Part shown: one piece after another, positions 6,563-48,354 of the stretch
Layout: every line of letters starts with the position of its first letter
How positions within the stretch are numbered: position 1 is the stretch's first letter
Source of the DNA: a virus
Taxonomy: Duplodnaviria > Caudoviricetes
Reading direction: 5' to 3' (one strand)
Length of the DNA: 64,000 nucleotides
IMG/VR virus record: IMGVR_UViG_3300010167_000013
Program-made: the position numbers and the translations under genes
The notes under the pieces: generated by a model
Databases searched by the model: none
What the model was told of the DNA's origin: nothing
What the model saw: only the letters and a program-made list of their open reading frames with translations

Positions 6563-6994
6563 GTGAAACGTGTGATAAGACGTAAAAGAAGACCTCATGA
6601 CATTCCAGAGACAATCATAGGAAAGAACGTTACGATTGACGCTGCATGTCTCAAGGGACCTAACACATCGGAAGGGTCAATTCGTATCGATGGATCTTTT
6701 CGCGGAAACATCGATATTAAAAATACTCTTGTAATTGGACCAAGTGGAGAAGTGATTGGAGATATTATCGCAGGACTAGTTATAGTTGCAGGATCCGTAG
6801 AAGGTAACATAATATCCGACTCAGCAATTCGCCTTACGTCTACATCAAGAATAGTAGGTAACATTGATACCATAACATTGATGGCAGATGAGAATTGTCA
6901 GATAACAGGTAGATGCAGAGTTGGATCATCATCAATATCAAACCAAAAGAGAGATGAGGAGATGGGAAGTGTAACTAATTATGAGGAATCGTGA
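6563..6994 (+). CDS. Bactofilin (polymer-forming cytoskeletal protein, CcmA-like)
   Basis: ETIIGKNVTI...IRIDGSFRGNI...LVIGPSGEVIGDI.AGLVIVAGSVEGNI...LTSTSRIVGNI...ITGRC is the bactofilin beta-solenoid repeat pattern. Confidence 0.85.
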   Translation: MKRVIRRKRRPHDIPETIIGKNVTIDAACLKGPNTSEGSIRIDGSFRGNIDIKNTLVIGPSGEVIGDIIAGLVIVAGSVEGNIISDSAIRLTSTSRIVGNIDTITLMADENCQITGRCRVGSSSISNQKRDEEMGSVTNYEES

Positions 6995-7118
6995 CACAAG
7001 TTTTACTTGCACACAAGATGAGAATGGGAAACTAACAACATTGGATGAATGTCACTACTGTGAAAGACGTAATAAATGCGACGTGTTCGCCATGATGCTG
7101 AATGATTTACAGGAGTGA
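6981..7118 (+). CDS. Small Cys-containing (possible Zn-binding) protein, 45 aa, absent from the ORF track
   Basis: MRNRDTSFTCTQDENGKLTTLDECHYCERRNKCDVFAMMLNDLQE* fills the gap in the operon. Confidence 0.5.
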   Translation: MRNRDTSFTCTQDENGKLTTLDECHYCERRNKCDVFAMMLNDLQE

Positions 7119-7147
7119 TCTCATTGGAGTTTCCAGGAGGGTAATGT

Positions 7148-7546
7148 ATGAAACGAACTGCAATACAAGCTACACTGTACGACCCCAAGATTCAACACTT
7201 CTTTGAGAATTGGGTTATCGAATCAAACCTGAAGATAAAGTTCAACGTTGCCACATACTACATTGAATCAAAAAAGAGGAATAAATTTATCCTACTATTG
7301 AAGATGATTGGATTCAAAAAGATTGTGGACGAAAGAAGAATTCTTCGGGTTCTGACAAATCAGCCCGGGTATCTTCATGGAAAAGATGGAGCGTTGTTCA
7401 ACAGATATCGTACCATATTTACTGACAAGAAACACGTTCGAGATATTGACGATGTTGTTGTGATTGAAGTCAAAGATCAAGAACGTATACTCAAGGGAGT
7501 AAAGCGAAAGATAAACGATATGAACATGGAGTTCCAAATTAAATAA
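7148..7546 (+). CDS. KH-domain-like RNA-binding protein
   Basis: VLTNQPGYLHGKDGALF resembles the type II KH signature of ribosomal protein S3 (I.T.RPG..IGK.G). Confidence 0.5.
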   Translation: MKRTAIQATLYDPKIQHFFENWVIESNLKIKFNVATYYIESKKRNKFILLLKMIGFKKIVDERRILRVLTNQPGYLHGKDGALFNRYRTIFTDKKHVRDIDDVVVIEVKDQERILKGVKRKINDMNMEFQIK

Positions 7547-7583
7547 AAAAATAAACCGTGGTAATCCCACGGTTTATTTTTTT
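7545..7583. terminator. Bidirectional terminator between convergent genes
   Basis: AAAAAATAAACCGTGG-TAATC-CCACGGTTTATTTTTT. Confidence 0.75.
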
Positions 7584-7584
7584 C

Positions 7585-7980
7585 TCAATAGTCTTCTTCC
7601 TCGTCGTCGTACAACTCATCTTCGAATTCTTTGATGAATTTTTCTTCGAGTCTGGCTTTCTTCTTTTTCTTCATTGAAGAGTTTACCATCAATGCTGTAG
7701 CAACGGTACCCAGCCCAATAAGGAATCTATTACGATTTCTTATTCTGTTCCGATGTACCCTTGTCAGAATAACGTCGATAGTTGCACGTTCCTCTTCTGG
7801 TACAACATCATCCAAGATGATGGCTTCTTGTCCTCTCCTGGAATCATTTAGATCAGGATTCCTCAGCTTCCTAATCACTTGATGGAAGTACCTCTCAGGT
7901 GGTGGAAGAAATCCTTGAGTGACATAATCGACTATGTCATTCGTCTTCTCAAATACAACCTTCTTTGGATTGACTAACAT
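7585..7980 (-). CDS. Hypothetical membrane-anchored protein
   Basis: One TM segment FLIGLGTVATALMV, then a Lys run and an acidic tail. Confidence 0.6.
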   Translation of the reverse strand: MLVNPKKVVFEKTNDIVDYVTQGFLPPPERYFHQVIRKLRNPDLNDSRRGQEAIILDDVVPEEERATIDVILTRVHRNRIRNRNRFLIGLGTVATALMVNSSMKKKKKARLEEKFIKEFEDELYDDEEEDY

Positions 7981-8020: not shown

Positions 8021-8200
8021 TATCACACACAAATAGAATATGGCATCCCTCTCAGGTTCCTGTGGTTAGACAGGCTATATTTCCGATATGCCCTATCGTA
8101 CTATTGTGCTTCTAATTTATTACTCCTAGTTCATTATTAAATATATTTTTATCCTATTAATCGTAATCCTTCTTTGAGAATATTTTTAGCAGCATTGTAG
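8021..8200 (-). ncRNA. TnpB omegaRNA (reRNA) with 3' guide TATTCTATTTGTGTGTGATA
   Basis: Downstream of tnpB: GTACGATAGGGCATATCGGAAATATAGCCTGT...CAGGAACCTGAGAGGGATGCCA fits the usual IS605 right-end scaffold pattern. The 5' boundary is approximate. Confidence 0.6.
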
Positions 8201-9279
8201 TCTCTATGGTGTTGGATACCACAGCTATCACAGGTCCAATGTTTCAGCCTCAACCCAACATCACCACGATTACCACAATTATTACAGGTCGTACTGGATG
8301 GGTAATACCTATCAACTTTCTGTAGTGTTCTCCCATACCACTCGCACTTGTATTCCAGCTGTCTTACTAGTTCACCTAGGGCTGTGTCATATATCGACTT
8401 ATTGATATCCTTGTACTTGGTTTTCATGCTTTGGATATCTAAATCTTCAATACAGATAATGTCATTGGTGTTAACTAGTGAACTAGTAACTTTGTGTAAT
8501 GTGTCATATCTCTGGTTAGTGATCTTCTCATATATTTTAGCTACCTTGATCCTAGCCTTGTTCCAGTTCTTACTACCTTTTACTTTCCTAGACAGTACTC
8601 TCTGAGCATTAGCTAGCTTGAGTTCATACTGCTTCAGATGCCTGTGGTTTTTGTATGTCTTTCCATTTGATGTAGTAATCAGCTTATTGATACCCAAATC
8701 TAACCCAATGGAGTTACCTGTGATAGGTAGAACCTTTGGTTCTACATCAGTACAACAGATAGAACAGTAGTACTTTCCACTAGGTACCTGTGATATAGTA
8801 GCATTCAGAATCCTACCAGAGATGTCACACCTTCCTCTAAACTTTACACTACCAAGTTTTGGTAGCTTGACAAAGTTACTCACTATCTGAATGTTATTAC
8901 CAGCAACATATTTAGTAGTATAGGACATACTCCTGTTCTTCTTACTCTTGAACCTAGGATAGCCCAGAGTGTCACCTAACTTTACTTTCCTGAAGAAGTT
9001 CTGAAAGGCCATATCTAGATTCTGCAGCGATGCCTGCAGTGCATGGGCATCCGGTTCTTGTAACCATTCCAATTCCTTCTTCAGCTTAGTTAACTCCCTA
9101 CTACAGCTATTGTATGTCATATAGCTCTTCTTCTCTTCATAGGTCTTATTCTCTTCATAGGTCTTATTCCTAAGGCATAAGAAATGGTTCCAAATGTACC
9201 TGCAACAACCAAATGTTTTCTGTATCTGTATTTGCTGTGAGTCATTTGGGTATATCCTAAACTTGTACGATCTATTCAT
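8149..9279 (-). CDS. tnpB: RNA-guided endonuclease TnpB
   Basis: N-terminal SYKFRIYP...KTFGCCRYIWN, RuvC-I GLDLG, RuvC-II IEDL, zinc finger CNNC...CDSC, RuvC-III RDYNAAKNI. Start ATG 9279 behind GGAGGTG. Contains an in-frame 18-bp duplication (NKTYEE x2, 9131-9166). Confidence 0.95.
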   Translation of the reverse strand: MNRSYKFRIYPNDSQQIQIQKTFGCCRYIWNHFLCLRNKTYEENKTYEEKKSYMTYNSCSRELTKLKKELEWLQEPDAHALQASLQNLDMAFQNFFRKVKLGDTLGYPRFKSKKNRSMSYTTKYVAGNNIQIVSNFVKLPKLGSVKFRGRCDISGRILNATISQVPSGKYYCSICCTDVEPKVLPITGNSIGLDLGINKLITTSNGKTYKNHRHLKQYELKLANAQRVLSRKVKGSKNWNKARIKVAKIYEKITNQRYDTLHKVTSSLVNTNDIICIEDLDIQSMKTKYKDINKSIYDTALGELVRQLEYKCEWYGRTLQKVDRYYPSSTTCNNCGNRGDVGLRLKHWTCDSCGIQHHRDYNAAKNILKEGLRLIG

Positions 9280-9301
9280 TATATTCTCACCTCCTACGTA
9301 T

Positions 9302-9310
9302 ATAATATAT
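9302..9310 (-). promoter_or_regulatory. Putative early promoter ATATATTAT driving tnpB
   Basis: Motif about 20 nt upstream of the tnpB start. A second variant (ATATATTCT) lies at 9333-9341. Confidence 0.55.
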
Positions 9311-9422
9311 AATCGAGAAATATGCATATCTAAGAATATATAATTACGTTTTACACTTCATTAGAAGTCTCCAGAACGAAGACATAAGTAATGACATCCC
9401 AATACCCAAGGAGGTTTCTATC

Positions 9423-10895
9423 ATGCCAAACAATAGATTGAGTGATAATCTACTCAGAGACTTATTTGTCTTTGATGATGAAAATAATCCGAAGAGTAGT
9501 CAGATAAGTAGAATATATCCACCAACAATACTGGATCAGGTATTCGACCATCTACATCCAACTCAAAAAAATCTGAGAGAAATACTTGCTGATCTTCGGT
9601 ATGAGATAATAACAGGTGGACTAGGCAATATCGAATTTCCAGTAACTACAGTGAATGGCAAGAGTGGGGATGTTACAGTAACGTCAAACGATGTTGGTCT
9701 TGGTAGAGTAGACAACACCTCTGATATAGATAAACCATTGTCAGTTCCACAGAGAAGCGCTGTGATGGATATATTGTCAGTCTACAACTTCAATATCAAC
9801 TTGGATCCATTGTATGAACACTTGAAGGATACCACTAACCCGCACAGTGTTTCTGTAGACGATTTGAATCTAAATGACAAATTAGTCAAATTTGCAGATG
9901 CTAGGGTTGGACTTCACAATCTTTCTACCAGTAGTAACACACATCCGGATATCAGGAGATTGCTATCCACATTGTGGGATAGGGTAGATGAGATTGATTT
10001 TGGCAGTTCTTCTGGTGGAAGTAGTGGAGGTAGTGGATCTGTAGCGAGTGATTTAGATGGTCATATCAAGGACAAGATGGCCCATTTCGATTTATTTGAG
10101 GGAAGAGAAAATACCAACAACAAGGCTATGATCTTTACTGCCACAATCGACAACAACCACACGATGTATCCAACTACTAGAGCAGTATCGGATTTTATTA
10201 CAGATAGACTTGTTGCGTTCAAGGATACATTACCAAAGATCAATGAATGGATATCAAATATTCAGGTTATCGATAATCAATCAGAACTTCCTGTTGCGAG
10301 CAGTGACAATTACAGACATGCATATATCATAACCAGAGGTCCAGACCCATTCGAGATCGAGAGTGCAATCGCAGTGTGTAGAAGAGATCCATCCGACATT
10401 TACTTCTGGGATATCAAAGGTACAGAAAATGTATCAATATTTGATCCGAAGTATTTCAAGAAAACGGTGAATGGATTATCGTTGGACATTCCAGCCATCC
10501 TAGATACTGACCCTGATGACGGAGAAGAAACAGTTTCCTTCTACGATGTGTTTCTGCGGTCAGTTCAAATACTTCCAGGAACAATGGACGGTCATATCAG
10601 ATATTCGGTCAACAATGATCCTAGTACAATGTCGGATGATGTAAAGATCCCAGGTCTCAATAGTCTTGCATACAGAGAGTGGATTACAGAGAATGAAATA
10701 AAAGAACTTGCTGTGCATGAAAAACATATTCTGAATAAAGCAGTTACTACTCGTACGATTGACGATAGAGCTGTTATAGCTCCAAAGATTTCATGTGCTA
10801 AGGGGAAGATAATAGGAAACCTTGTGAATAGTACAAGTACAGCTCATGAGATAACACTTGAAGAACTAGCGGACGCACTACGTTCACTAATATAA
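9423..10895 (+). CDS. Virion fibre/baseplate-attached structural protein (paralog of 24256-27261 and 35041-39078)
   Basis: Motifs VTTVNGKSGDV, VGLGRVDNTSDIDKPLS, HLKDTTNPHSV and N-terminal YPPT..D.V are shared with the two larger fibre proteins. Confidence 0.65.
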   Translation: MPNNRLSDNLLRDLFVFDDENNPKSSQISRIYPPTILDQVFDHLHPTQKNLREILADLRYEIITGGLGNIEFPVTTVNGKSGDVTVTSNDVGLGRVDNTSDIDKPLSVPQRSAVMDILSVYNFNINLDPLYEHLKDTTNPHSVSVDDLNLNDKLVKFADARVGLHNLSTSSNTHPDIRRLLSTLWDRVDEIDFGSSSGGSSGGSGSVASDLDGHIKDKMAHFDLFEGRENTNNKAMIFTATIDNNHTMYPTTRAVSDFITDRLVAFKDTLPKINEWISNIQVIDNQSELPVASSDNYRHAYIITRGPDPFEIESAIAVCRRDPSDIYFWDIKGTENVSIFDPKYFKKTVNGLSLDIPAILDTDPDDGEETVSFYDVFLRSVQILPGTMDGHIRYSVNNDPSTMSDDVKIPGLNSLAYREWITENEIKELAVHEKHILNKAVTTRTIDDRAVIAPKISCAKGKIIGNLVNSTSTAHEITLEELADALRSLI

Positions 10896-10919
10896 GTTTT
10901 TGAGGAGAGGCCGTGACAA

Positions 10920-13900
10920 ATGATGATGTACAAGTTGGAGAAAGACATATCCCTCTACAAAAATCAATTCGAAGATCTCGTTCTAAATATCTTCCAACGA
11001 CATCTCATGGAAAGACTGTCTATGGATCTTGATGGGTTGTTATTCAGAATAAAATACATGGTGAAGAACGATAAAGATCTAACGAAGCTTCCAGAAATGA
11101 AAAATCAATTCATTTCAAAGGCGCTAGAACTGAGAAGCATCTTCGGAGAAATCATGTACAATTTTCTGGTTGAACTAGTGGGATTCGGAGATAACTTCTC
11201 GAAAGACGATATCGAAGATCTCATGGCTCAAGATGTGAAAATGGATAATGTTCATGTGAGATTCAAAATGCTACTGTTGTCAGAGAATAAGAATTACCTG
11301 GATTATGTTGATGCCAGTATCGAAGATGGAAAAGTGTTCAATATGTTTCCAGATAAGTTCTTCAGGTACTATGTTGACTCATACAATGATGGGATAGCAA
11401 AAGCATATCCAGAATTATTTGAATCTAGACAACAAGACAGCATTGGTACAGGACATGATTCTGAAGTGTTCGTTCATTCTATGACCCTACAAACAACTGA
11501 GGATTGTAATCTCAACTGCTTTCCAGCTGGGACTAAGATCCTTATGGAAGATTTTTCTCACAAGAATATAGAAGATATAGAATTGGGAGACACAGTATTG
11601 GGGTTTGAAGAATTTAATGAATTCCAGCACCAAAGAAGTTTAATATCTACCATAGTTACCCAGTTATTTCACCATGATGAAAGCTGCTACAAGATTAGTC
11701 ATCCATCTTTTAAAGAGGATTTATATGTTACCCCGGAACATCCAATGCTTACAGCCCGCGGAGATTGGATACATGTCCGAGATCTTCGACCATCTGATGG
11801 GTTGCTAATGACAACATTTGACCCTGATGATTATTATCATACTAATGTTGATCATATCAACTATGTGAAAGGATACTTTATAGCTGGATGGCTCGGAGAT
11901 GGTTGTGTTATGAAACGTACCCAAAAAGATGGATATCGGCGATATTTCATGCGTTTTGTGGTCAAAGATATAGACATGACTGAACGAATGAAACGCTTCT
12001 CTGAAACTCTTGGGTTTAATTTCACAACGAATACTTTCAAGATGTCGCACAAAGATGGCTGTTATCGAGATACTTTATATTCAGGCAAGAGAGATGAGTA
12101 CGAAAGATGGGTCAAGCTATGTGAAGAGACATTTTCGGACAAACAAGCACTGAAGGATCCTGATTTTCTAATGGGATTCATGGCTGGATTTTATGATGCT
12201 GAAGGTGGTATCTGGGGTGCATGTATTAGGATTCACAACTCAGATAATAAACTCCTCCGCATTGTGGAGGCTGGTCTTAATTTTCTGAAAATAAAATGGG
12301 ACTATGATAAACCTCACCAGCCAGCTAATAAAATTGTATACACTCTTCGAATATTAGGCGGGTCACCAGATGTCCTAAAGTTTCTGAAATCCACCAGACC
12401 TGCGATTAAGAGGAAAGGTTCAGTCAATTTAGTTGGTAAGAGTTTATTCCAACGTATTGATGGATACACCATCGAGTATGCAAAATATGCAAAAACAGTG
12501 TATAATTTTGAGACGACGGAGCATACTTATATTGCTAACAGACTCCTGGTACACAACTGTAGCTACTGTTATATGTTCAACAAGAGTGATATGAGAATGA
12601 CCTTCGATATAGCCAAGAAATTCATTGATGAGTTATTGGCAGATAGATATGGTTACATCAATCGGTACAACTCTCCAGCGCTGATATTGGAGTTCATAGG
12701 TGGAGAGCCTCTGCTAGAAATTACATTGACAAGAAAAATCTACGAATACTTTCTGGACAGAACGTATGAATTGGAGCATCCATGGTTTAATCTTCACAGA
12801 CTCTCAATATGCTCCAATGGGCTACAATACTTTGATGAAGAAGTTCAATCGTTCTTCAGGGATTATGCCGGTAGTATATCATTCAATATATCCATAGACG
12901 GAAACAAGGAGTTGCATGACTCCTGTAGAATCCAGCCAAGTGGAGAAGGGAGTTATGATATCGACATGATTGCACTTAATCACTTCAACAGACACCATAC
13001 TCCAGAAAGAAATTCTAAAATGACTTTGGCTCCAGACAACATGAGATACTTATTTGATTCAGTAAAAAGCTTCATCGAAAATGGAATGATGACCATCAAC
13101 CTGAATTGTATTTTCGAGGAGGGATGGAACCAAGAAACAGCTCTTCTGGAATACAATGAATTGAAAAAGGTTGCCGATTACATTCTGGAAAATGATCTGG
13201 AGAATTTGTACATTGCTATCTTCAACGAGAGACAAGAAGATACATCAGAAAAGTCATATGACGGGAATTTCTGTTTCAAGGATGGTACTCAGGTGTTAGC
13301 TATCGATGGCCATCGTAACATAGAAGACCTGAATATCAATACTCTCTTGTACACTGCATCTGGTAGCATTCATAAAATTGTCAACATCAGTCAAAGGAAG
13401 TCTAGGAGTAATATGAAGATACATACTTCTGGAACATTTCCTATTGAATGCACTCGTGATCACAAGATATTTGCAAGAAAGATGATCCAAGAAAAAGGAG
13501 AAACATACTACGAAAAACCAGAATTTTATGAAGCTTCAGAACTTGTCGAAGGAGACTCAATCGCTCTTCCAATTCTAGATCTGTCACAGAATAAAAAGAA
13601 TTGGATAAACAACAACATCGCATATGCTCTTGGGGTATACTTACTATGTGGAACGATTAGTATGAATCGCATTGTGGTACCAGTCGATCCAGATAACAAG
13701 GTAGATGTTCGTGAGCATTTTCAGAGAGCCGGACTAAACATAACGACCGACAGACCTGACAGAGTAGAAATATATCGCCAAAAGTCAGAGCTGAACGATA
13801 ACTTCTTCAAACTATGTCTGAGGGCTGGAATTAGACCGAATGTCAAATCAGTTCCACAGATATTATTTGAATCCAAGAAGGATATAATTCAGGCCATGAT

Positions 13901-27546: not shown

Positions 27547-28113
27547 TCAAGGAAGAATTGGATTGACGAATAATTTATTATAAAAACCTATGTGTTTTGA
27601 GGATACAACAAGTTTTTGGTTATCACATTTATAAATATAAGGTCTGATGTTGAATACCCAACATCTCTTCATGAATGCTAGTAGTAAATCATCAGTGGTA
27701 TCCTCAGATATGTTGATGTGGATTGTACTCATTGCTCTGTGGAGCATTCTCACATATGCCAATGAGTTCAATTCGATATATGGTATCCAATGATTATGAT
27801 GCTCCATGTATCTATCATTTGTATCTGGATTGTACAAGATATTTACATTTGTGTCAGCGACCAGTTCTCGAATCTTACTTCCAGGATAATGTCTCAAGAT
27901 ATGCATATCGATGTAGAGATCGACACATACATCTGGACAATGTATACTACTCATCGATATCAGTTCAATTGCATCAAGTGCAGCACGTTGATTCAACTCG
28001 ATTAGTGATATCTCTAGTGTGTATTTCCCCTTAGTGTGTTTTGTTCTATATCTATACCCAAATAGGTTCTGAAGTTGATTCTTGTAGGAATCCTGATGTA
28101 AAGTTAGCATCAT
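27547..28113 (-). CDS. Hypothetical protein in the radical SAM operon
   Basis: ATGA-coupled to the upstream gene. Confidence 0.6.
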   Translation of the reverse strand: MMLTLHQDSYKNQLQNLFGYRYRTKHTKGKYTLEISLIELNQRAALDAIELISMSSIHCPDVCVDLYIDMHILRHYPGSKIRELVADTNVNILYNPDTNDRYMEHHNHWIPYIELNSLAYVRMLHRAMSTIHINISEDTTDDLLLAFMKRCWVFNIRPYIYKCDNQKLVVSSKHIGFYNKLFVNPILP

Positions 28114-28457
28114 CTATCCTCCCCATACATAAATATACTAATCACTAAGTTGTCGTCCAGTATGTGTGGTTCTGGAGGAAGGTTATTGTGTGTCTTAGAT
28201 CTACCGAACTTGTTGTGGTGGTACAACCTCACACAATTTCTGATGATATCATTTCCATACTTTGTGTCATTGATATATGCTAATTCATTGATGGTGAGTA
28301 AGGTTTCTCCGTCATAACTATTGAGGTCCTTCATCGTGACAATGTAATCAATAACAGTGGCTAGGACTTCTTCAGTGGTTCCGAATTCTCTGAATTGATT
28401 TACCAGATCTAGTGAGAGTTTCTTATCCAGTGTAGATTGATTTACTGACATTCGCAA
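28110..28457 (-). CDS. Hypothetical protein in the radical SAM operon
   Basis: Overlaps the end of the radical SAM gene. Confidence 0.6.
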   Translation of the reverse strand: MRMSVNQSTLDKKLSLDLVNQFREFGTTEEVLATVIDYIVTMKDLNSYDGETLLTINELAYINDTKYGNDIIRNCVRLYHHNKFGRSKTHNNLPPEPHILDDNLVISIFMYGEDR

Positions 28458-29773
28458 CCAACCTCCCCTAGATCCAAATATGCATTTATCAAATAATCAC
28501 GGTAGGTATCTCCCTTATTTTTGATTAGTGCATCAAGTATTCCTAGTTCATCATAGTACTCATACAAGAATTTGAACTTGGATTGATATAATTTGCATAC
28601 TGATTCCACTGGCATGAATACTTCCTTGTTGGTCTCATAGTTGGAACCTAGGCAACCTTTTGTACAGAACGATTTGATTGGACATGAATAGCACTTCAGC
28701 TGAAATGCTGCTGGAAGAGATTTGATCGATAGATACTGTGTCACAAATTCCCCTTCGATATCAATAATCTTTTCTTGGTTTTCATCCAAGATAAACCTAC
28801 CAGCTATGAATTCTGGATACATCAATCGGTGACATGGAACTACAGTTAGGTCTGCCATTCTGACAGCTATTGATTTCTGAATGCTGCATGATATTGCATC
28901 GTCGTATCTTTTATTGGCATTTCTAAGAATCAATGCAGTAATGTCTTCTGGTCCATTCACTAAGTTATCAACATATCTCTTAGCATCGTAGTCAAAATAT
29001 TCCATCTTTTTGTCTATCATATGTTTCAGAAAGTTGATATAGTGAGCGATGGATTCCTCTGTCCATCCATCGTTCCTTACTTCCAACATATTTAGTTTGA
29101 ATTTCTCCCCATGATCACCGAGCATTTCGATGAACCAATCCCAGTTGTCAGGCCATTCCTCAATATTGTTATGATGCACCATCGCATGAAAGCTATAATT
29201 ATACTTCCTTGCAAATGCCATGAGTTTCTCGTAGTACTCATCGCCTCTGGACTGATTCTTACTCTTGTATGGTCTATTACATTCCATGAACTTCCCGTCA
29301 TCAGAGATAGATAGATATACTCGTTTACTGGTATCAATGAACTTCTCAACGATATCTTCGACTCTTCTTGTCTTCTCATCATCCAGGATAAAAGAATAGT
29401 TTGTTGGAATATCAACATACTGGAACAGAGTTGGGCACTCTATCATTTTCTGGTGAACTAGATCTAGTACCTGGAATCCTATTTCTTGAGAAAATATTTC
29501 TCCAGAGAAAAGGGACAACCTACCTTGGTACTCATTCTCTATCAAGAAGTCTAAAAATATTTCAGTATTCCTCAGAATGCTTTCACCGTTCTCAAATACA
29601 GATGATGGATACAGTTGATGCCCATATCTATGCATGTAACAGTAGGTGCATGCCTGATCACATTCTGGTGATAGTATGAGTTCAATGGATGGGATTGAAT
29701 TATTAGCCCCACTGAGACCTCTCATCAGATAACTCTTCAAGAGCAAATCATTTTCCTTCTGATATGATATCAT
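28442..29773 (-). CDS. Radical SAM protein with SPASM domain
   Basis: CDQACTYC, LFSGE, ISDDG. SPASM cysteines SCSIQ...VPCHR...CYSCPIKSFCTKGCLG...VCK. Confidence 0.88.
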   Translation of the reverse strand: MISYQKENDLLLKSYLMRGLSGANNSIPSIELILSPECDQACTYCYMHRYGHQLYPSSVFENGESILRNTEIFLDFLIENEYQGRLSLFSGEIFSQEIGFQVLDLVHQKMIECPTLFQYVDIPTNYSFILDDEKTRRVEDIVEKFIDTSKRVYLSISDDGKFMECNRPYKSKNQSRGDEYYEKLMAFARKYNYSFHAMVHHNNIEEWPDNWDWFIEMLGDHGEKFKLNMLEVRNDGWTEESIAHYINFLKHMIDKKMEYFDYDAKRYVDNLVNGPEDITALILRNANKRYDDAISCSIQKSIAVRMADLTVVPCHRLMYPEFIAGRFILDENQEKIIDIEGEFVTQYLSIKSLPAAFQLKCYSCPIKSFCTKGCLGSNYETNKEVFMPVESVCKLYQSKFKFLYEYYDELGILDALIKNKGDTYRDYLINAYLDLGEVGCECQ

Positions 29774-31236
29774 GCGAACATCTCCTTCTTACTATCTCTG
29801 AGGTGTCTTTCGTACAGTAATTCAAATGTTCCATTCAACAATAACTTAGCCATTGACGTATCGGGAACAAGGAAATGATTTGTTATCTGCAAATTATGAA
29901 TTATGCATTCATTGATCCTCTTGAGGAATATAACAGCTCTATTCCTCATCTTCTTGCTATTCTTGAACATTGGACTTATTTGACCAGCCTGTGCTAATTC
30001 ATAGACTAGTGCCGAGATAGCTGAGAATGTTATTAATGCTCCTGCTCTGGTGGCATATGCCTCCATATTTTTTACCTTGGCAACATTCTCTGGAGAGGTA
30101 TCATTGATATTTAGCGATAGTAGATTTGAATTTCTTTCAAACATATATTTTGAATTGCGTTGCTTCGGAACTACCTTTCGATCAAAGATTGTACCTTCTA
30201 TCTTGCTATTCACAAGTGAATCTTCGTAGAACTTTGTGCTCAACATCCCAGTAGTCTTTGAACATACCCCATATGTTTTCCCATCGGGATGGAGTCCAAT
30301 GGTACTATACCCTCCGGAGCAACAACTATATCCAACATTATCAATGGTGGTATTCGGGTTTTCCATTTGATCGTATATTGTAGGGAATTCTTGGTCTAAC
30401 CATAGCATGGTATCATACAATGGTAAGAACAGCTGATCCCTATTTCTATCACTAATATCAAGTACCATCTTGACGAACTCAGCTAACTTCTTACCATCTT
30501 CTTGAGTGTATTCCCCAGGAGCAACAAAGTTTGGGATAGACATCATTTGAATATCTAAATTATTGGATGTTGGTATGTTATTCAATCCAACATGTAGATC
30601 CTCAAAGAACTTGTAGTATTTTATCACGGATTCTTCATCTACTAAAACATTTGTTATTGTGTCCATACATAGTGTAGATTTCGCGATTATTGATACACCA
30701 ACATTTCCTGGAACACTTGAGTCCAATAGATATACAAGAGGTTTGAGATTATTGACCACGGTCTCAGTTACCCCTGATTTCTGATTTGATATGAACAGTC
30801 TATGACGATCTGTTACCTCGGATGGTCCGTCAAGTGACACCTGAATATGGACATGAAACTCTCTGTTCATATCCTTGTATCTGTAGTTCTTCATTATGTC
30901 AACAAATCTACCTAATTCAGTAATATTGGTGGTGAGGTTAGTGAGAAGGGTAAAGTGATACAGATTCGGAAACTCATCCAAGTAGGTATCTAATTTGTCA
31001 TTGAGTAGGGACAGATTAAGGAGTAATTCTCCTCCAGTAATATATAGCTGGGTGAGGTGATGTCTGTTCTCTCCATAAATCTTCTTCAATGATTCAAGGA
31101 GGATATTCTCCTTCAGAGCTTTCCTGACTACTTTGTCGTAGTCAAAGATTGCTTTGTTTTTGTGAATGTAGCAATAATCGCACTTCAAGTTACATTTAGT
31201 GCTCAACGCAATGTGAACTACATTTGGTTCAATCAT
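29770..31236 (-). CDS. Radical SAM protein with reduced (twitch-like) auxiliary Cys domain
   Basis: CNLKCDYCY, ITGGE, LLTN, QVSLDGP...DRHR and CCSGG...GVC...EC. Likely start 31236 (ORF open to 31293). Confidence 0.85.
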   Translation of the reverse strand: MIEPNVVHIALSTKCNLKCDYCYIHKNKAIFDYDKVVRKALKENILLESLKKIYGENRHHLTQLYITGGELLLNLSLLNDKLDTYLDEFPNLYHFTLLTNLTTNITELGRFVDIMKNYRYKDMNREFHVHIQVSLDGPSEVTDRHRLFISNQKSGVTETVVNNLKPLVYLLDSSVPGNVGVSIIAKSTLCMDTITNVLVDEESVIKYYKFFEDLHVGLNNIPTSNNLDIQMMSIPNFVAPGEYTQEDGKKLAEFVKMVLDISDRNRDQLFLPLYDTMLWLDQEFPTIYDQMENPNTTIDNVGYSCCSGGYSTIGLHPDGKTYGVCSKTTGMLSTKFYEDSLVNSKIEGTIFDRKVVPKQRNSKYMFERNSNLLSLNINDTSPENVAKVKNMEAYATRAGALITFSAISALVYELAQAGQISPMFKNSKKMRNRAVIFLKRINECIIHNLQITNHFLVPDTSMAKLLLNGTFELLYERHLRDSKKEMFA

Positions 31237-31391
31237 TAGAATGCCTCTTTTCTTTTCTACCATCCGATTACTAGTAATTAATGACATACTCACAGTATTT
31301 TCCTGATGGTTGAAATTTTATATCATTGGTCTACCATCACGAGGAATTTATACTGATACATAATATTCAACCTAATGAGGGAGTGATAATA

Positions 31392-31913
31392 ATGGATCTC
31401 ACCACCAGTTACTACAGCGCTAGCTACCATGTGTTCAGAGCCGGATTCGTATCATTGATAAATGATCGAGAAGCTTTCATGCAACATTACCATGAGAACT
31501 CAGCTCACATGCATAGAACCATGAGAGAAGATTTGGCAAAGATGCTTTGCTACAGTAAGATCTTTGTTAACAAGAGTGATGAGGAATTACCGTTGCTGAA
31601 GGAGTACCTGGATGTAATTCTAGACCATCCAGGTAGATCAAAGTATTACTATGACAAGTTTATTTTCGACAGGAAGTTTGGTAGCAGGTCTATATCTGAG
31701 AACATAGCTGAGATCGAGAAGCTGATCGAAGAAACCAGTAAACTTGATGAACCTCTGTACGATATATTTCTTCATGAAATATTGATGGGTTTATTGTTGG
31801 AAAGTGGAGACACCGAGAAGATCAGGAAAAACAAAGACAAGAAAAAAGAGTTTAGATCCAATGTTCAGAAAAGATCATTCGACAGAAGATACGTACCGAC
31901 ATCAAAAAAATAG
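31392..31913 (+). CDS. Helical hypothetical protein (one copy of a domain duplicated in the next gene)
   Basis: SLINDREAFMQHYHEN...LLKEYLDVIL aligns with both halves of 31928-32992. Confidence 0.65.
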   Translation: MDLTTSYYSASYHVFRAGFVSLINDREAFMQHYHENSAHMHRTMREDLAKMLCYSKIFVNKSDEELPLLKEYLDVILDHPGRSKYYYDKFIFDRKFGSRSISENIAEIEKLIEETSKLDEPLYDIFLHEILMGLLLESGDTEKIRKNKDKKKEFRSNVQKRSFDRRYVPTSKK

Positions 31914-31927
31914 GAGGTTGATTACTA

Positions 31928-32992
31928 ATGTTATCTGATGTAGAAAGCAAACAAATGATCAATAGCCTGATATTATTGTTTGACAATGAGACAGAGTTCA
32001 TCAACCTATACAATACCAACAAACACACGTTTGATGATTCTTTCAGGAAGAAACTTCTGATCGCCATGAGACGTAATTTCAGATTCAATCATGACTCATA
32101 TAACGAAGATGGTATTTCGTTATTCCGTACATATATCTACACGATAATCGAAGATGAAGTAGATGCAAACTTCGAGTTCAAGATGTACATTGAATACGAG
32201 AAGAGTCGCTGTTTGACAATGGATGTGAGGTATCCAAAGGTTCTTGAGTTCCTGAATGAGACTGATAAGCTAGAGCACAAGATACTGATCAACATTAGGC
32301 TGTTGCAGTATCAGCTGTTCTTGTTCAACATTGACAAGATCAAAGAGCATCAGAACACAGTGAAGGGATTATTAGCTCAGAGAGATCCTAGTGTTAGGAC
32401 TGACCATGACGAATACCTCGAGCAATTATTTGTCACATTAGCAGACTTTGTCGTGTTGATAATGGATGAGGAAGAGTTCAAATCTTACTACAACACAAAC
32501 AAGCATGTGTTGGATGAATACATGAAATACAAACTGTTGAATATCATAGTCACTAGATTTAGGCATGATCCTGCATTCAACGATGACATCCTCAAGGAAT
32601 ATATTGCATTGATTCTTGGAGAAGAAGCTGTAGAGTTCACGTATGCTGTTTATTTAGAAAAAAATGTATTCAGGTCTCAAGCTTCTCACAAGATAGATGA
32701 AAGAATAGCAAAGTTCGAAGCTCTGTTGGATGGAGAAGAGAATCATGACAGACTCAGGAGACTTCATCTTGAGCTGATGGATCTCAATCAGATAGCTGGA
32801 AACATCGACAAGGTTACGGATCATGCACTTCAATTCAATCAACTGATGATGGAAAGAGAGCAATATGGTTCCATGTTCAGCTATGAAAATGTCTATGGAA
32901 TAAACAATGACGACAATGATAGTACATGGAAAGAACATCTCTACAGCCTGGGAAATAACCAGATAGTTAGCGATGCGTACAATTTAGCATAA
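31928..32992 (+). CDS. Helical protein with an internal duplication
   Basis: DNETEFINLYNTNKHTFDDSFRKKLL versus DEEEFKSYYNTNKHVLDEYMKYKLL. Confidence 0.7.
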   Translation: MLSDVESKQMINSLILLFDNETEFINLYNTNKHTFDDSFRKKLLIAMRRNFRFNHDSYNEDGISLFRTYIYTIIEDEVDANFEFKMYIEYEKSRCLTMDVRYPKVLEFLNETDKLEHKILINIRLLQYQLFLFNIDKIKEHQNTVKGLLAQRDPSVRTDHDEYLEQLFVTLADFVVLIMDEEEFKSYYNTNKHVLDEYMKYKLLNIIVTRFRHDPAFNDDILKEYIALILGEEAVEFTYAVYLEKNVFRSQASHKIDERIAKFEALLDGEENHDRLRRLHLELMDLNQIAGNIDKVTDHALQFNQLMMEREQYGSMFSYENVYGINNDDNDSTWKEHLYSLGNNQIVSDAYNLA

Positions 32993-33000
32993 AACCAATT

Positions 33001-33034
33001 TAATATAGCAGTGCCGATCGGCACTGCTATATTA
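33001..33034. terminator. Perfect palindrome, bidirectional terminator
   Basis: TAATATAGCAGTGCCGATCGGCACTGCTATATTA. Confidence 0.7.
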
Positions 33035-33046
33035 CTATTTTTTACA

Positions 33047-33523
33047 TTATTTGCCCGGAGTATATGAACCGCCATTGTACGAAGATTGTACACTAGATTG
33101 CACAGGACTATTGTTAGCTGGACATGAATCGTAAGATGAATCATGAGAGTTACAAGTAGCGTAATTACTACCGCCATAATAGCTAGAAGTATTTACAGGG
33201 CTATTGTGTGCACATGGTACAGTCTCTTTAGAGTTTAACCAAGTTTCCATAGTTGCAAGGCGAGATGCCTGAATGAGAGTGCTGTTTGCTGTAACATTCC
33301 CACCAGCATTTGCTACAGCCCCAAGAGCACTTATAGTACCAAGAGTATTATACCCAGCTATGACACTATTCATTTCAGCTGCACTAACTGGGTTAGAATT
33401 CATAGATGCAAATGTATAATTTGATAGCTGGTGTTTTGTTCGTAGATTATTTATTGCAGTTCGAATATTAGTTAGTTGAGCAGATTGAACTACCGAGTTG
33501 CTAGTTGTTAGTGAGAGTGCCAT
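33047..33523 (-). CDS. Small fibre-like protein with a Ser/Asn/Tyr/Cys repeat tail; candidate radical SAM substrate
   Basis: N-terminal helices SAQLTNIRTAIN, VSAAEMNSVIAG and IQASRLATMETWL. Tail CAHNSPVNTSSYYGGSNYATCNSHDSSYDSCPANNSPVQSSVQSSYNGGSY. Confidence 0.55.
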   Translation of the reverse strand: MALSLTTSNSVVQSAQLTNIRTAINNLRTKHQLSNYTFASMNSNPVSAAEMNSVIAGYNTLGTISALGAVANAGGNVTANSTLIQASRLATMETWLNSKETVPCAHNSPVNTSSYYGGSNYATCNSHDSSYDSCPANNSPVQSSVQSSYNGGSYTPGK

Positions 33524-33563
33524 TCATTTATACCTCCTTCTCGAGGATTTCATAATGCATATA

Positions 33564-33905
33564 TCATGAAGCGATCTCTTTGTAAAAGTCTATCAAGTCA
33601 GGATCATTAATCCAGAATACCATTTCTTCAATGGTTTCATCGTTTACGTATTCAATCCTAGATGGCCCATAGCAATATACATGAGGATCATCTCGTACCT
33701 TGATTTTTATATAAGATATGTCAGGACTATTCGGGTCTAACAATCTTCCAAAACGTTTTCTGACACGAGTAGAGAAATTTCCAGCCACACTTCGTATTGA
33801 AAAATATGGATTAGTTTCTTCTTCGTGGATATCTATGATGAATCCTTGTTCAAAGCCAAAGCTACTTTGATCATTCAATATTACAGATATTGACTCAGAT
33901 ATCAT
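33564..33905 (-). CDS. Hypothetical protein
   Basis: ORF with RBS GGAGG. Confidence 0.6.
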   Translation of the reverse strand: MISESISVILNDQSSFGFEQGFIIDIHEEETNPYFSIRSVAGNFSTRVRKRFGRLLDPNSPDISYIKIKVRDDPHVYCYGPSRIEYVNDETIEEMVFWINDPDLIDFYKEIAS

Positions 33906-33930
33906 GCTCTCATAACCTCCCTCTTATGCA

Positions 33931-33965
33931 AATAAAAGGAGATTCTCAGAGAATCTCCTTTTATT
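33931..33965. terminator. Inverted repeat / terminator
   Basis: AATAAAAGGAGATTCTC-A-GAGAATCTCCTTTTATT. Confidence 0.6.
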
Positions 33966-33978
33966 CAATATTATCATA

Positions 33979-34299
33979 TCAAGAGTAAGTAATAGCACTA
34001 CGATCCTGAGCAATGAAGCTTATGATTTCTTGATCATCACTAGAATTGTAGGTGTACTCACACGTTCCCAGAGATACTTTGCTTCCACCCATTTCAAAAG
34101 AAACGTCAAACTTTATATCATCACCATTTATTTTACTGAAGAGATCGTTGAGTTTCTTCTTCATGGCAAACTTATCTTCACCTAACGAGGATATCGTGAG
34201 ATATGAAGTGAGCTTACTTTCATACAATCTCATGTCGAACCCTGTGAGATCATAATCAAACTTTTTCTTATTCACTTGAACTGTCAATTTCTTATTCAT
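33979..34299 (-). CDS. Hypothetical protein
   Basis: ORF with RBS GGAGGAG. Confidence 0.6.
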   Translation of the reverse strand: MNKKLTVQVNKKKFDYDLTGFDMRLYESKLTSYLTISSLGEDKFAMKKKLNDLFSKINGDDIKFDVSFEMGGSKVSLGTCEYTYNSSDDQEIISFIAQDRSAITYS

Positions 34300-34356
34300 G
34301 CGATCACTGCTCCTCCGTTCTTTTTTATTAGATAAAGTGAACGTCCAATCGTGTTT

Positions 34357-34965
34357 TTATATATTGCAGATCAGCATGGATATTCTCTCTACAGAGTCTC
34401 CGAAATGATCTTCAAGAGCTTTGCCTATCACAGTACCGGGAGTTCTAAATTCCGATTTAGCTGCAACTCCAGGAATGTTTGATATCGACAACAGATCCCC
34501 TTTTTGAATATTTCCAGTAGCTTTGACGCTGACCCTACCAGCTATACCTACTGGCACATAGTTTTTCACTGTTTCAGGATCATCTTCATCTGCCCCCAGA
34601 ATAAATCCATACGTATCAGAGTACACTCCAACAATGAGGGTTTTGACCTCCTGGATATATTTGGTTATTCCATTTTCTCCCCAGAACACAACATCACCTG
34701 GTGTGATTATTTCTCTGGGGTCATCCTTTATCATCCACTCAGCAAGGTCGTTGTACACAGCCTGTTGTACTCTGCTGGCTGTGTTTATTATTGTCGTTGC
34801 TCCATGAATGAGAGTTCTAGTAGCCCCTATTGTCAGATTTCCACCACTAACTGTAAGATTAGCATTCATAGTAAGAGCACCAGTCATGGTGTCTCCGCTT
34901 CTATTTACTTTGTTTTCCCAGCTAGTACGGTCAGCTAGATCAATATGATGATTTTTGTTAGCCAT
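34357..34965 (-). CDS. Short tail fibre with a C-terminal autocleaving intramolecular chaperone (peptidase G2-like)
   Basis: KVNRSGDTMTGAL fibre repeat, then YNDLAE...PGDVV...VGVYSD...VPVGIAGRVSVK..G.I..GDLL...PG.A...IGKALE. Confidence 0.75.
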   Translation of the reverse strand: MANKNHHIDLADRTSWENKVNRSGDTMTGALTMNANLTVSGGNLTIGATRTLIHGATTIINTASRVQQAVYNDLAEWMIKDDPREIITPGDVVFWGENGITKYIQEVKTLIVGVYSDTYGFILGADEDDPETVKNYVPVGIAGRVSVKATGNIQKGDLLSISNIPGVAAKSEFRTPGTVIGKALEDHFGDSVERISMLICNI

Positions 34966-46908: not shown

Positions 46909-48354
46909 TTACCATTCGAAAAATACGATTCCGTTACCGCCTGCGCCGCCCAGTCCGCCTGTTCCACCCGTTGTCTGGGTTCCAGCTCCGCCTCCCCCGC
47001 CGCCTGCACCGTAACCACCACCGCCGCCTCCGCCTCCGCCAGTAGAGTTTGTATAATTACCGCCCCCATTCCCGCCTTTTGAAATCGCGCCCCCACCGCC
47101 TCCGCCGCCTGGTGCCATACTAACGGTGCTCGCCATACCAGAGCCCAAAGACCCGCCCAATGAACCAGCAGTACCATTCGTACTCGAGCCACCAAAACGA
47201 GTTCCACTGCCACCCTTGCCTCCGCCAGAATAGCCTATGCCTCCTGTTGTAATTAAATTTGTGGTTTGATTACCTCCGCTACCTCCGCCTCCGCCCCCAC
47301 CGCCTCCGCCGCCTCTTCCAGTGCCCCCATCTCCGCCATTACCACCGCTATATCCCGAAATTATATCGCCGCCAGCACCGCCTCCTCCTCCTCCACCGCC
47401 GAAGCCCCCAATGCCGCCGCCACCTCCATTACGGGCTGGAGTGGCTTGACCCTGCAACCCATTCAAGCCATTCGTAGCGTAGATTGAGGGTATAGAAATA
47501 TTCCCTTTGATTAATGTTATTGTACCAAGCCCAGCACCGCTCAACACAGTATTTCCCGCACCTACCGTAATAGATATATTTGCTCCTGCTGTAACGGTAT
47601 AAACACGGTCAACGCTTTCTCCAGCTTTACCGCCAACGCCAGCGATTTTATCCGTTGTAGGATTACCTCCATCTCCACCCGACGCAAAAGCTAATATCTT
47701 AATAGCAGTAACTCCTGTCGGCACGGTAAACGTCCCGTTCGCGGTAAACACGGCTTTTCTCGCGCCTGTTCCACCAGAACTACTACTTGACGAATTCAAT
47801 ATTGCATTTAGTTTCGCCATTGCAGTACCCGCCGACGCAGTACCGCCCGTATCACCTGTAACACCTAAATTACTTTGCGCGGCTCTAGTACTAATAGCTG
47901 CATCTAAATTCCCAGCTCTAGCATCTGTCCAAGTATTTACAAATTTATTTGCTATCCATTTGATTATGCTGAACACACTACTGCCATTATTAGCAGCAGT
48001 ATCTTCAGAATTCCCAATTGATTCACTAATGTCATCTATGTCTTGCTGCATATTAGAAAAATTAACAGAAACTAATATCTCACCCTCCAAATCGGGTAAT
48101 ATATTCAAGTCAATAACAAATGTCTTGACAGTCTCAACTTCTTCAGGTTCAATGGTTACTGTAGTCACCATACCACTAGCCTTGTTCCCAATGTAAATCT
48201 CAAACTGGTATTCAATTGGGTTCTCATCGTCATTCGGAGGAATAACAATTGCACAGCTGTACTTCTTGTCACCTATTGGTACTAGTGGATAAAATGCATC
48301 TAGATCCAGTGAATACACTTTCACTTCTGGTATCAATGTAACAACTTTAGCCAT
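46909..48354 (-). CDS. Glycine-rich tail fibre/receptor-binding protein
   Basis: AGNLDAAISTRA and VFTANGTFTVPTGVTAIKILAFASGGDGG...GG.GGNGIVFFEW (glycine-rich fibre domain). Confidence 0.75.
   Translation of the reverse strand: MAKVVTLIPEVKVYSLDLDAFYPLVPIGDKKYSCAIVIPPNDDENPIEYQFEIYIGNKASGMVTTVTIEPEEVETVKTFVIDLNILPDLEGEILVSVNFSNMQQDIDDISESIGNSEDTAANNGSSVFSIIKWIANKFVNTWTDARAGNLDAAISTRAAQSNLGVTGDTGGTASAGTAMAKLNAILNSSSSSSGGTGARKAVFTANGTFTVPTGVTAIKILAFASGGDGGNPTTDKIAGVGGKAGESVDRVYTVTAGANISITVGAGNTVLSGAGLGTITLIKGNISIPSIYATNGLNGLQGQATPARNGGGGGIGGFGGGGGGGGAGGDIISGYSGGNGGDGGTGRGGGGGGGGGGGSGGNQTTNLITTGGIGYSGGGKGGSGTRFGGSSTNGTAGSLGGSLGSGMASTVSMAPGGGGGGGAISKGGNGGGNYTNSTGGGGGGGGGYGAGGGGGGAGTQTTGGTGGLGGAGGNGIVFFEW

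Follow-up and report, generated by a model that had tools for sequence, protein, structure and literature searches.

Two radical SAM enzymes beside a repeat-tailed protein in a phage tail-fibre region: a candidate system for fibre-tip maturation

Radical S-adenosylmethionine (SAM)/SPASM maturases have been described in the natural-product pathways of bacteria, with one antiphage system added in 2026. What, then, would two radical SAM enzymes be doing in the tail-fibre region of a phage? This question is raised by positions 27,547 to 34,965 of a 64,000-nucleotide stretch of virus DNA (Duplodnaviria; Caudoviricetes; IMG/VR record IMGVR_UViG_3300010167_000013), the whole of which is referred to here as the window. 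An original prediction, made from the letters of this DNA, had named two translationally coupled radical SAM genes (below, rSAM-A and rSAM-B), two coupled orphan genes and a gene for a 158-aa protein with a repetitive tail, and had proposed that the enzymes modify this protein, by Tyr/His cyclophane cross-links, thioethers or epimerisation, for display on the virion as an exchangeable receptor-binding tip; all of the named genes are present as open reading frames (ORFs; Table 1), and the proposal finds support in part. The answer that we favour, with a probability of roughly 60%, is that the cassette is a member of a phage maturation system in which an N-terminal module of the 158-aa protein would be recognised and its tail modified by the enzyme pair, yielding a rigid fibre tip. 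The combination of a radical SAM maturase with a repeat substrate is here in a new biological setting and falls into no curated family: searches of Pfam, NCBIfam and the literature yielded no description of the combined rSAM-A/rSAM-B/repeat-tail system, and the literature searched yielded none of a structural phage protein matured by radical SAM/SPASM enzymes.

The evidence base for this enzyme-substrate reading is gene neighbourhood and homology. Both enzymes have the CX3CX2C motif of the radical SAM superfamily, whose members bind SAM at a [4Fe-4S] cluster in a partial TIM barrel; the motif is CNLKCDYC in rSAM-A and CDQACTYC in rSAM-B. Across the rSAM-B family, C38/C42/C45 are invariant together with C296, C314, C361, C364, C370, C374 and C393, four of which form CYSCPIKSFCTKGC (CX2CX5CX3C, spaced C361-x2-C364-x5-C370-x3-C374); these seven invariant C-terminal cysteines, the CX2CX5CX3C motif included, indicate a full SPASM domain, scored by the SPASM model TIGR04085 at 26 bits against a cut-off of 27; domains of this kind have seven to eight Cys and bind two auxiliary clusters. 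Within the rSAM-A family (54 members) the triad C34/C38/C41 is kept in 51, and just C325, C344 and C463 are invariant beyond it, so that a single twitch-type auxiliary cluster is indicated and not a SPASM domain. The predicted pairing of one full with one reduced enzyme thus holds family-wide. Radical SAM models match rSAM-A over its N-terminal half only (Pfam Radical_SAM, 28.2 bits, cut-off 29.5; Fer4_12, 22.9 bits, cut-off 22; phrog_1802, E 4e-18; an NCBIfam twitch subfamily, E 6.6e-11); a metagenome gene caller places its start at 31263, giving 497 aa. All NCBIfam matches of the two enzymes are to peptide or protein maturases (PapB, QhpD, anSME, cyclophane formers and HxsB), with scores about one tenth of the curated cut-offs; residues 27-385 of rSAM-B align with the PapB model at E 1.7e-13, far under its cut-off. 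Hence the type of enzyme is clear and no known family fits, and the comparison supports the expectation that rSAM-A and rSAM-B are peptide/protein-maturase-like radical SAM proteins, not enzymes that modify cofactors or nucleotides.

A 5.8-billion-protein index holds one distant relative of rSAM-A and 18 metagenomic relatives of rSAM-B. The 19-row rSAM-B alignment being too diverse for a search of IMG/VR, an alignment of six metagenomic relatives was used instead and retrieved 61 phage loci; rSAM-B relatives share 29-38% identity. Among prokaryotes (one genome per species, 185,579 species) at least three family members were found, all on short contigs of metagenome-assembled genomes (MAGs), and on this survey the gene set is almost phage-only. 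An rSAM-A homologue directly precedes rSAM-B in nearly all of the ~70 related loci (designated L001 and so on where one must be told from another), and rSAM-A likewise lies immediately upstream of rSAM-B in the window. When rSAM-A or the 158-aa protein alone served as query, IMG/VR yielded no match.

The third constant component of these loci is a protein with a low-complexity repeat tail. Every ORF in the loci was scored by its richest 40-aa span in S/N/Y/H/G/D/T, with a threshold of 0.75 corresponding to the 95th percentile of 1811 ORFs, and the rSAM-B relatives were collapsed at 70% identity into 35 clusters. A repeat-tail protein (at least 75% S/N/Y/H/G/D/T) occurs within three genes in 29 of these clusters, and 46 of 227 nearby ORFs have such a tail, as against 10 of the 457 distant ORFs (odds ratio 11, p = 4e-15), which ties the enzymes to proteins of the 158-aa type across phages. 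Of the other six clusters, two carry variants rich in F/C/N/S, to which the metric is blind, contig ends truncate two more, and the last two are without an evident cause; a further F/C/N/S-rich variant stands beside the enzymes on a Clostridia MAG contig. Mostly the repeat-tail genes lie immediately upstream of rSAM-A, usually as a long and a short form together, and in a few loci one lies between rSAM-A and rSAM-B or just after the accessory gene. Some phages have two rSAM-A/rSAM-B pairs, each with a repeat-tail gene of its own (L003:3683-11326; L032:3547-13057, the L032/L043 type). By the same measure the 158-aa protein is the sole one of its type in the 64-kb window, where one protein, a poly-Gly protein, outscores it. 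A 481-aa protein with long poly-Gly/Asn runs (46909-48354, minus strand) is of low complexity of another kind, and the segment that holds it is the window's only GC-rich part (47% vs. ~38%).

Most of the repeat-tail proteins begin with M-[AG]-F-x-W-[TS] (the FxW class), after which comes a helix containing E-I-[KR]-x-N-x-D; a second module, W..PV....QELR..DYA.D.N.C, is present in long forms, and a Cys usually marks the border between N-domain and tail. A second class of N-domain (class 2; L006, L019, L029, L045 and L054 types) proves related to the FxW class in profile-profile comparison (Prob 72%, E 3.5e-5). The tails follow a period of four, [Tyr/His/Val/Phe]-[Asp/Asn]-[small]-[small], as in YDSS-YNNG-VDGA-YDSG, with S/G/T autocorrelation of +0.45 at lag 4 and -0.47 at lag 2. 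The tails are predicted to be disordered, and the N-domain of one relative is modelled with confidence as a helical hairpin domain (pLDDT 79-92). Twenty repeat-tail proteins compared with Pfam, NCBIfam and PHROG fell into no curated family, and no longer proteins carrying the relatives' N-module were found, which is weak evidence. One of the L003 substrates, 396 aa long, combines a LamG domain with a SYGSG/T-rich tail, so that the repeat tail can also be joined to other adhesin-type domains. In-frame TAG codons occur within the substrate and radical SAM genes of L032 (9774-9776), L052, L054, L055, L057 and L063 (around 8600-11300), and in L052, for example, TAG accounts for 10 of the 15 stops in the coding frame; judging from these sequences, the phages concerned probably read TAG as a residue, and gene calls with table 11 make the cassettes of such TAG-recoded relatives look fragmented.

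The enzyme tree splits with 99% SH-aLRT support into loci with FxW substrates and loci with class-2 substrates, and the window's rSAM-B falls on the class-2 side. The comparison supports the view that the class of the substrate N-domain tracks the enzyme clade; the prediction had proposed covariation of the tail sequence with enzyme clade, and what was examined, and found to follow the clade, is the N-domain class. This pattern also bears on a different explanation, in which the enzymes act on the large fibres, another virion protein or a small molecule and the repeat-tail genes are mere neighbours within a fibre module. We consider it unlikely: it is the repeat-tail gene, and no particular large fibre gene, that is constant in 29-31 of 35 lineages, usually abutting rSAM-A, with an N-domain class that follows the enzymes, and the enzyme matches are all to maturases of peptides or proteins. 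It draws some support from the separate transcription of the 158-aa gene in the window, from the L005/L074 type, which has the enzyme pair and no nearby repeat-tail gene, and from an rSAM-A-glycosyltransferase fusion in one relative and a NeuB gene beside the cassette of another, which could point to sugar chemistry. The fusion joins rSAM-A to a GT1 glycosyltransferase (L008:4527-7022, 831 aa), and TatC and TatA are encoded upstream of the same cassette (L008:1605-2646); in L003, a NeuB-like sugar synthase (11854-12702) and a subtilase with a peptidoglycan-binding domain (6681-7844) adjoin the cassette. These glycosyltransferase, Tat, NeuB and subtilase genes of L008 and L003 may represent extra steps of tailoring, export or processing.

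Does the 158-aa protein of the window belong to this family? Its layout is an N-domain (residues 1-102), a border Cys103 and a 55-aa S/N/Y/C-rich tail which reads, from C103, CAHNSPVNTSSYYGGSNYATCNSHDSSYDSCPANNSPVQSSVQSSYNGGSYTPGK; the three Cys and the quasi-repeats listed in the prediction are present. A GGAGG ribosome-binding site precedes M1 of the gene, and none precedes M41, the start chosen by the metagenome caller. Residues 1-49 align by hhalign with 20 long-form family members (Prob 80.6%, E 1.3e-5), MALSLTT..SAQLTNIRTAINNL of the 158-aa protein corresponding to MAFSWTT..SAQWDEIKTNVDTL of L051, with Phe and Trp replaced by Leu. The protein is also the window's top match to the class-2 hidden Markov model (HMM), collinear over residues 14-121 including the border Cys, and none of 2000 composition-preserving shuffles of it reached either HMM score. 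Its tail has an autocorrelation of 0.27-0.32 at lag 4 and shares HDSSYD with L008 and CP[AS]N...V.SS with the L006 type. Together these comparisons support homology of the 158-aa protein to the repeat-tail proteins via the conserved N-module; with this module and a period-4 S/N/Y/H/D-rich tail within three genes of the enzymes, the window has both the enzyme pair and the repeat-tail protein of the gene set.

Outside the related enzyme loci the 158-aa protein is an orphan. An exhaustive HMMER search of 1.84 billion representatives with its N-domain brought up, besides the protein itself, only two surface proteins rich in repeats; these we read as compositional matches. A Pfam scan found neither a signal peptide nor a peptidoglycan-binding domain. 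Its AlphaFold2 (AF2) model, with helices at 14-30, 48-71 and 79-100 and a disordered tail, is of low confidence (pLDDT 42.6), too low for a fold search. An N-terminal echo of the phage's giant Cys-rich protein, which had been suggested for the 158-aa protein, is undetectable (hhalign P 0.54).

The proposed fibre-like nature of these proteins receives indirect support from their surroundings. Genes with PHROG tail-fibre matches flank the window's cassette on both sides (Table 1) and share two blocks with each other; in many relatives the cassette stands beside large ORFs, most of which have no tail-fibre PHROG match. Both repeat-tail proteins of one relative, L001 (3336-4522), and the long form of another, L051 (8502-9853), end in SD[VI]RLKKDI[IV]YI, which is the first strand of a Peptidase_S74 domain, and the next ORF, of 85 aa, covers Peptidase_S74 positions 15-56 of 58 (30.8 and 32.5 bits, cut-off 22). 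With strand 1 on the repeat-tail protein and the rest on the 85-aa ORF, the tail-fibre chaperone is split between substrate and partner, and a single chaperone remnant may work in trans for two or more fibre proteins. Weak leads in the same direction come from the Atlas look-alikes of the relatives' N-domain model, which are N-termini of viral proteins bearing Ig, fn3 or S74 domains; in a mostly viral look-alike cluster, PF27846, the target domain of CXXX-repeat radical SAM enzymes, is present in 23% of members. There is thus good comparative support, at the level of sequence, for regarding proteins of the 158-aa type as fibre-like, and display of the repeat-tail protein on the virion is what we infer from it.

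The same observations weigh on the possibility that the system makes a peptide of the ribosomally synthesized, post-translationally modified kind (RiPP), the N-domain being a cleaved leader and the modified tail, or pieces of it, being released as a diffusible toxin, signal or metal binder with no part in the virion. The architecture is indeed leader-like, with a conserved N-module before a variable repeat core, subtilase (Peptidase_S8) genes adjoin the cassettes of L003 and L010, TatA/TatC genes adjoin that of L008, and the TVGG repeats described below, thought to yield many small products (PMC9062424), offer a precedent. Most loci, however, have no protease or exporter; the cassette lies among tail-fibre genes here and beside large ORFs, mostly without a tail-fibre PHROG match, in many relatives; a split S74 chaperone is attached to the L001 and L051 proteins; and the N-domain is modelled as a folded domain of 75-100 aa and not as a short leader. 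We therefore give this explanation a small chance.

Under the reading that we prefer, a matured fibre tip, the N-terminal module would act as a recognition handle, much like a RiPP leader, and would probably also join the protein to the tail. Both enzymes would use 5'-deoxyadenosyl radicals to make repeated side-chain modifications along the tail, most likely cross-links involving, in each tetrad, the residue that is aromatic or His, and also Cys in tails that have it. A floppy tail of low complexity would thereby become a rigid fibre tip that resists proteases. Cross-linking is the most likely chemistry, at somewhat short of even odds: the models closest to the enzymes are those of cross-linkers, cross-links would make a disordered repeat stiffer and more resistant to proteases, and, when 14 variants of one tail type are compared, conservation is highest for Cys and Phe and among the lowest for Ser. 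In these variants all five Cys columns are invariant, followed by Phe at 81%, and Tyr (69% invariant) is mid-table behind Arg and Gly. Epimerisation or another modification stays a candidate, since no motif rule fits all of the repeats (Val, Gly, Cys-free tails).

Comparison with known maturases places the pair near several of these cross-linkers. The N-terminal half of rSAM-A has weak matches (E 1e-8 to 1e-11) to the triceptide maturases XyeB, YhhB, GrrM/OscB, FxsB and HaaB/HtkB, SPASM enzymes that work on repeated short motifs and there form a cross-link between an aromatic or His residue and one nearby. Unlike triceptides, the present system has a period of four in which positions 3-4 hold small residues, often Gly, and position 1 often Val, as well as two enzymes, a folded-protein substrate and a phage setting; with 33.7-42 bits against cut-offs of 310-450, and Gly often at tetrad position 3, where the aromatic-X-X motifs of triceptides need a side chain, it is not assigned to them. 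PapB, of the ranthipeptide type (NF047865), is the top NCBIfam match of both enzymes, and rSAM-B spans nearly the whole model, at 50.2 bits for rSAM-A and 50.5 for rSAM-B against a cut-off of 340, so that neither is a PapB, a family whose substrates carry Cys-X3-Asp/Glu motifs. The related thioether enzyme QhpD cross-links a protein subunit rather than a peptide, and the C-x3-[S/D/N] spacings of the window's tail (CAHNS, CNSHD, CPANN) are like those of PapB/QhpD systems; unlike with PapB, some relatives' tails are devoid of Cys, so a Cys-Asp thioether cannot be the common chemistry.

Two further comparisons concern the repeat itself. TvgB, a SPASM enzyme, acts repeatedly on TVGG in TvgA and makes poly-cyclopropylglycine (PMC9062424). 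The tetrads resemble that substrate as four-residue repeats ending in two small residues; they differ from it in that TvgB is a single enzyme acting on short peptides in a bacterial host with Val-specific chemistry, and the likeness is one of repeat logic, no sequence relationship having been seen. CXXX-repeat systems (TIGR04115; PF27846), which include the first radical SAM cassette of this same phage, similarly place a phage-borne SPASM maturase beside a period-4 repeat protein, the repeats there being Cys-based and here based on Tyr, His, Ser and Asn. rSAM-A reaches 31.6 bits against the TIGR04115 cut-off of 350, and the 55-residue tail has three Cys, where CXXX-repeat substrates have one at every fourth position; the pair is accordingly not a CXXX-repeat system. 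Within the phage, next to that first cassette, is an IS605-type TnpB gene (8149-9327, minus strand; OrfB_IS605, Cas12f1-like TNB and HTH domains, E 1e-28 to 4e-19).

In the logic of its gene set, the closest analogue is HxsABCD (TIGR03976-03979), a comparison by analogy: there, too, two different radical SAM enzymes and a small partner accompany a protein substrate with short His/Ser-containing repeats. HxsB and HxsC, with HxsD, mature the repeat protein HxsA, which blocks phage DNA entry (Li et al. 2026, PMC13128918), and HxsA is modified within a repeat, with +8 Da on SHRSS (PMC13128918). Could the phage carry a counterpart, in which the infected cell exports the matured repeat protein and the DNA of competing phages is thereby kept from entering (superinfection exclusion)? 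The parts list is the same, with two radical SAM enzymes, a small partner and a His-x-Ser-type repeat protein, literal H-[DN]-S repeats occur in L008, SHDSS occurs in the window's tail, and TatA and TatC adjoin the L008 cassette. Unlike HxsA, the repeat tails run to tens of tetrads and are acidic or neutral, whereas the DNA-binding model requires a basic protein; the 158-aa protein has no signal peptide or peptidoglycan-binding domain; the setting is one of tail-fibre genes; and rSAM-A scores 31.7 bits against the HxsB cut-off of 370, with no Hxs match for rSAM-B or for the 115-, 188- and 158-aa proteins, hence none to HxsC, HxsD or HxsA. The locus is therefore not assigned to the His-Xaa-Ser family, and of the explanations discussed here we regard superinfection exclusion as the least probable.

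Several observations also weigh against a matured fibre tip. The support for it is wholly comparative, from gene neighbourhood and homology. The window's 158-aa gene lies outside the enzyme operon, an opposite-strand gene pair and a terminator intervening, and the window's accessory genes are unlike the family's accessory protein. Loci of the L005/L074 type, which hold the closest rSAM-B relative, have no repeat-tail protein in the available 11-16 kb. As for chemistry, Val is frequent at tetrad position 1 and Gly at positions 3-4, so that no single known cross-link rule fits every repeat, and the tail of one relative contains no Cys, so that a thioether cannot be common to all. A role of the N-module as virion anchor is weakened by Atlas look-alikes that reach a TM of only 0.32-0.40 by query, by a weak PHROG tail-fibre match in only one of 20 repeat-tail members, and by a relatives' N-domain model that has no meaningful PDB match (Foldseek E > 3); in VIA its matches stay at Z <= 6.5 and are all generic helical hairpins, and BFVD gave weak rows only.

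Turning to the layout of the locus (Table 1), the rSAM-B start codon overlaps the rSAM-A stop (ATGA), which couples the two genes translationally. Two plus-strand genes and a hairpin lie between this operon and the 158-aa gene, and the two therefore form separate transcription units; the single cassette of the original prediction stands insofar as the 158-aa gene is near the enzyme genes and fails insofar as it belongs to a different operon. The plus-strand orphans of 195 and 354 aa, the longer of which has an internal duplication, find each other by jackhmmer and find nothing in the ~70 related loci; they have no family match in Pfam, PHROG or NCBIfam, and neither these scans nor the jackhmmer search against the related loci revealed anything to tie them to the enzyme-substrate system. 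Three genes upstream of the 158-aa gene, the stand-alone 202-aa fibre-like gene scores 21.9 bits with the Peptidase_G2 intramolecular-chaperone model (cut-off 25) and has weak tail-fibre PHROG matches. The region is phage-like, with 37-41% GC, and neither it nor rSAM-A nor the 158-aa protein has a counterpart in INPHARED, whether as DNA or as protein.

Table 1. Features of the radical SAM locus and its flanks, in window coordinates.
Feature	Coordinates	Strand	Remarks
Tail fibre, 1358 aa	35041-39117	minus	Upstream flank; several tail-fibre PHROGs, best E 7e-16
Fibre-like protein, 202 aa	34357-34965	minus	Weak Peptidase_G2 chaperone match
Orphan, 106 aa	33979-34299	minus	
Orphan, 113 aa	33564-33905	minus	
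Candidate substrate, 158 aa	33047-33523	minus	ORF
Two-way hairpin terminator	33001-33034	none	15-pair stem; T-run after the stem on both strands
Orphan, 354 aa	31928-32992	plus	Paralogue of the 195-aa gene; converges on the 158-aa gene
Orphan, 195 aa	31326-31913	plus	Paralogue of the 354-aa gene
rSAM-A, 507 aa	29770-31293	minus	Radical SAM; reduced, twitch-like auxiliary domain
rSAM-B, 443 aa	28442-29773	minus	Radical SAM/SPASM
Orphan, 115 aa	28110-28457	minus	Overlaps the rSAM-B end; sits where the family's accessory gene sits
Orphan, 188 aa	27547-28113	minus	Overlaps the 115-aa gene by ATGA
ORF, 51 aa	27343-27498	minus	
Tail fibre, 1001 aa	24256-27261	minus	Downstream flank; phrog_892 tail fiber protein, E 8e-32

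The accessory protein that follows rSAM-B in relatives is fast-evolving and forms a family of 150-200 aa (162 aa in the L049 or L040 type), to which the window's 115- and 188-aa proteins show no similarity (hhalign P 0.28-0.31). These two proteins have no family match in Pfam, PHROG or NCBIfam and no usable ESM Atlas match, and jackhmmer and hhalign comparisons of the window's accessory and neighbouring small genes with all related loci revealed no relatives; other class-2 loci also have unrelated small genes after rSAM-B. Class-2 loci share two conserved downstream genes of 263-290 and 296-338 aa (L006:12065-13841, L019:11140-12030, L045:12113-13940), both absent from the window, one of which has a weak Peptidase_U32 match (E 0.0065). 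U32 proteins include oxygen-independent hydroxylases, and it is conceivable that this gene contributes an extra tailoring step on aromatic-rich tails.

Overall, comparative support is good for the enzyme-substrate link, as it is for the fibre-like nature, and the sequence comparisons suggest that phages probably remodel a protein of their own tail region with natural-product chemistry. A more far-reaching and more tentative proposal, which we put clearly below even odds, is that many uncultured phages build fibre proteins with tetrad-repeat tails that are cross-linked residue by residue by a dedicated radical SAM pair, bringing RiPP-type chemistry into virion construction. If true, this would define adhesion or receptor-binding tips hardened by enzymes as a new class, and a common N-terminal adaptor could carry interchangeable tails as radical SAM targets, Tyr/His tetrads here and CxxxC repeats elsewhere. 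Phage tail-region proteins would then be further targets for RiPP-type chemistry, enzymology would gain at least 35 enzyme lineages whose natural substrates have tens of repeats, a conserved and so far unannotated gene set of large anaerobe-associated phages would gain a testable function, and the reason for the presence of iron-sulfur (Fe-S) enzymes inside phage tail modules would itself become testable.

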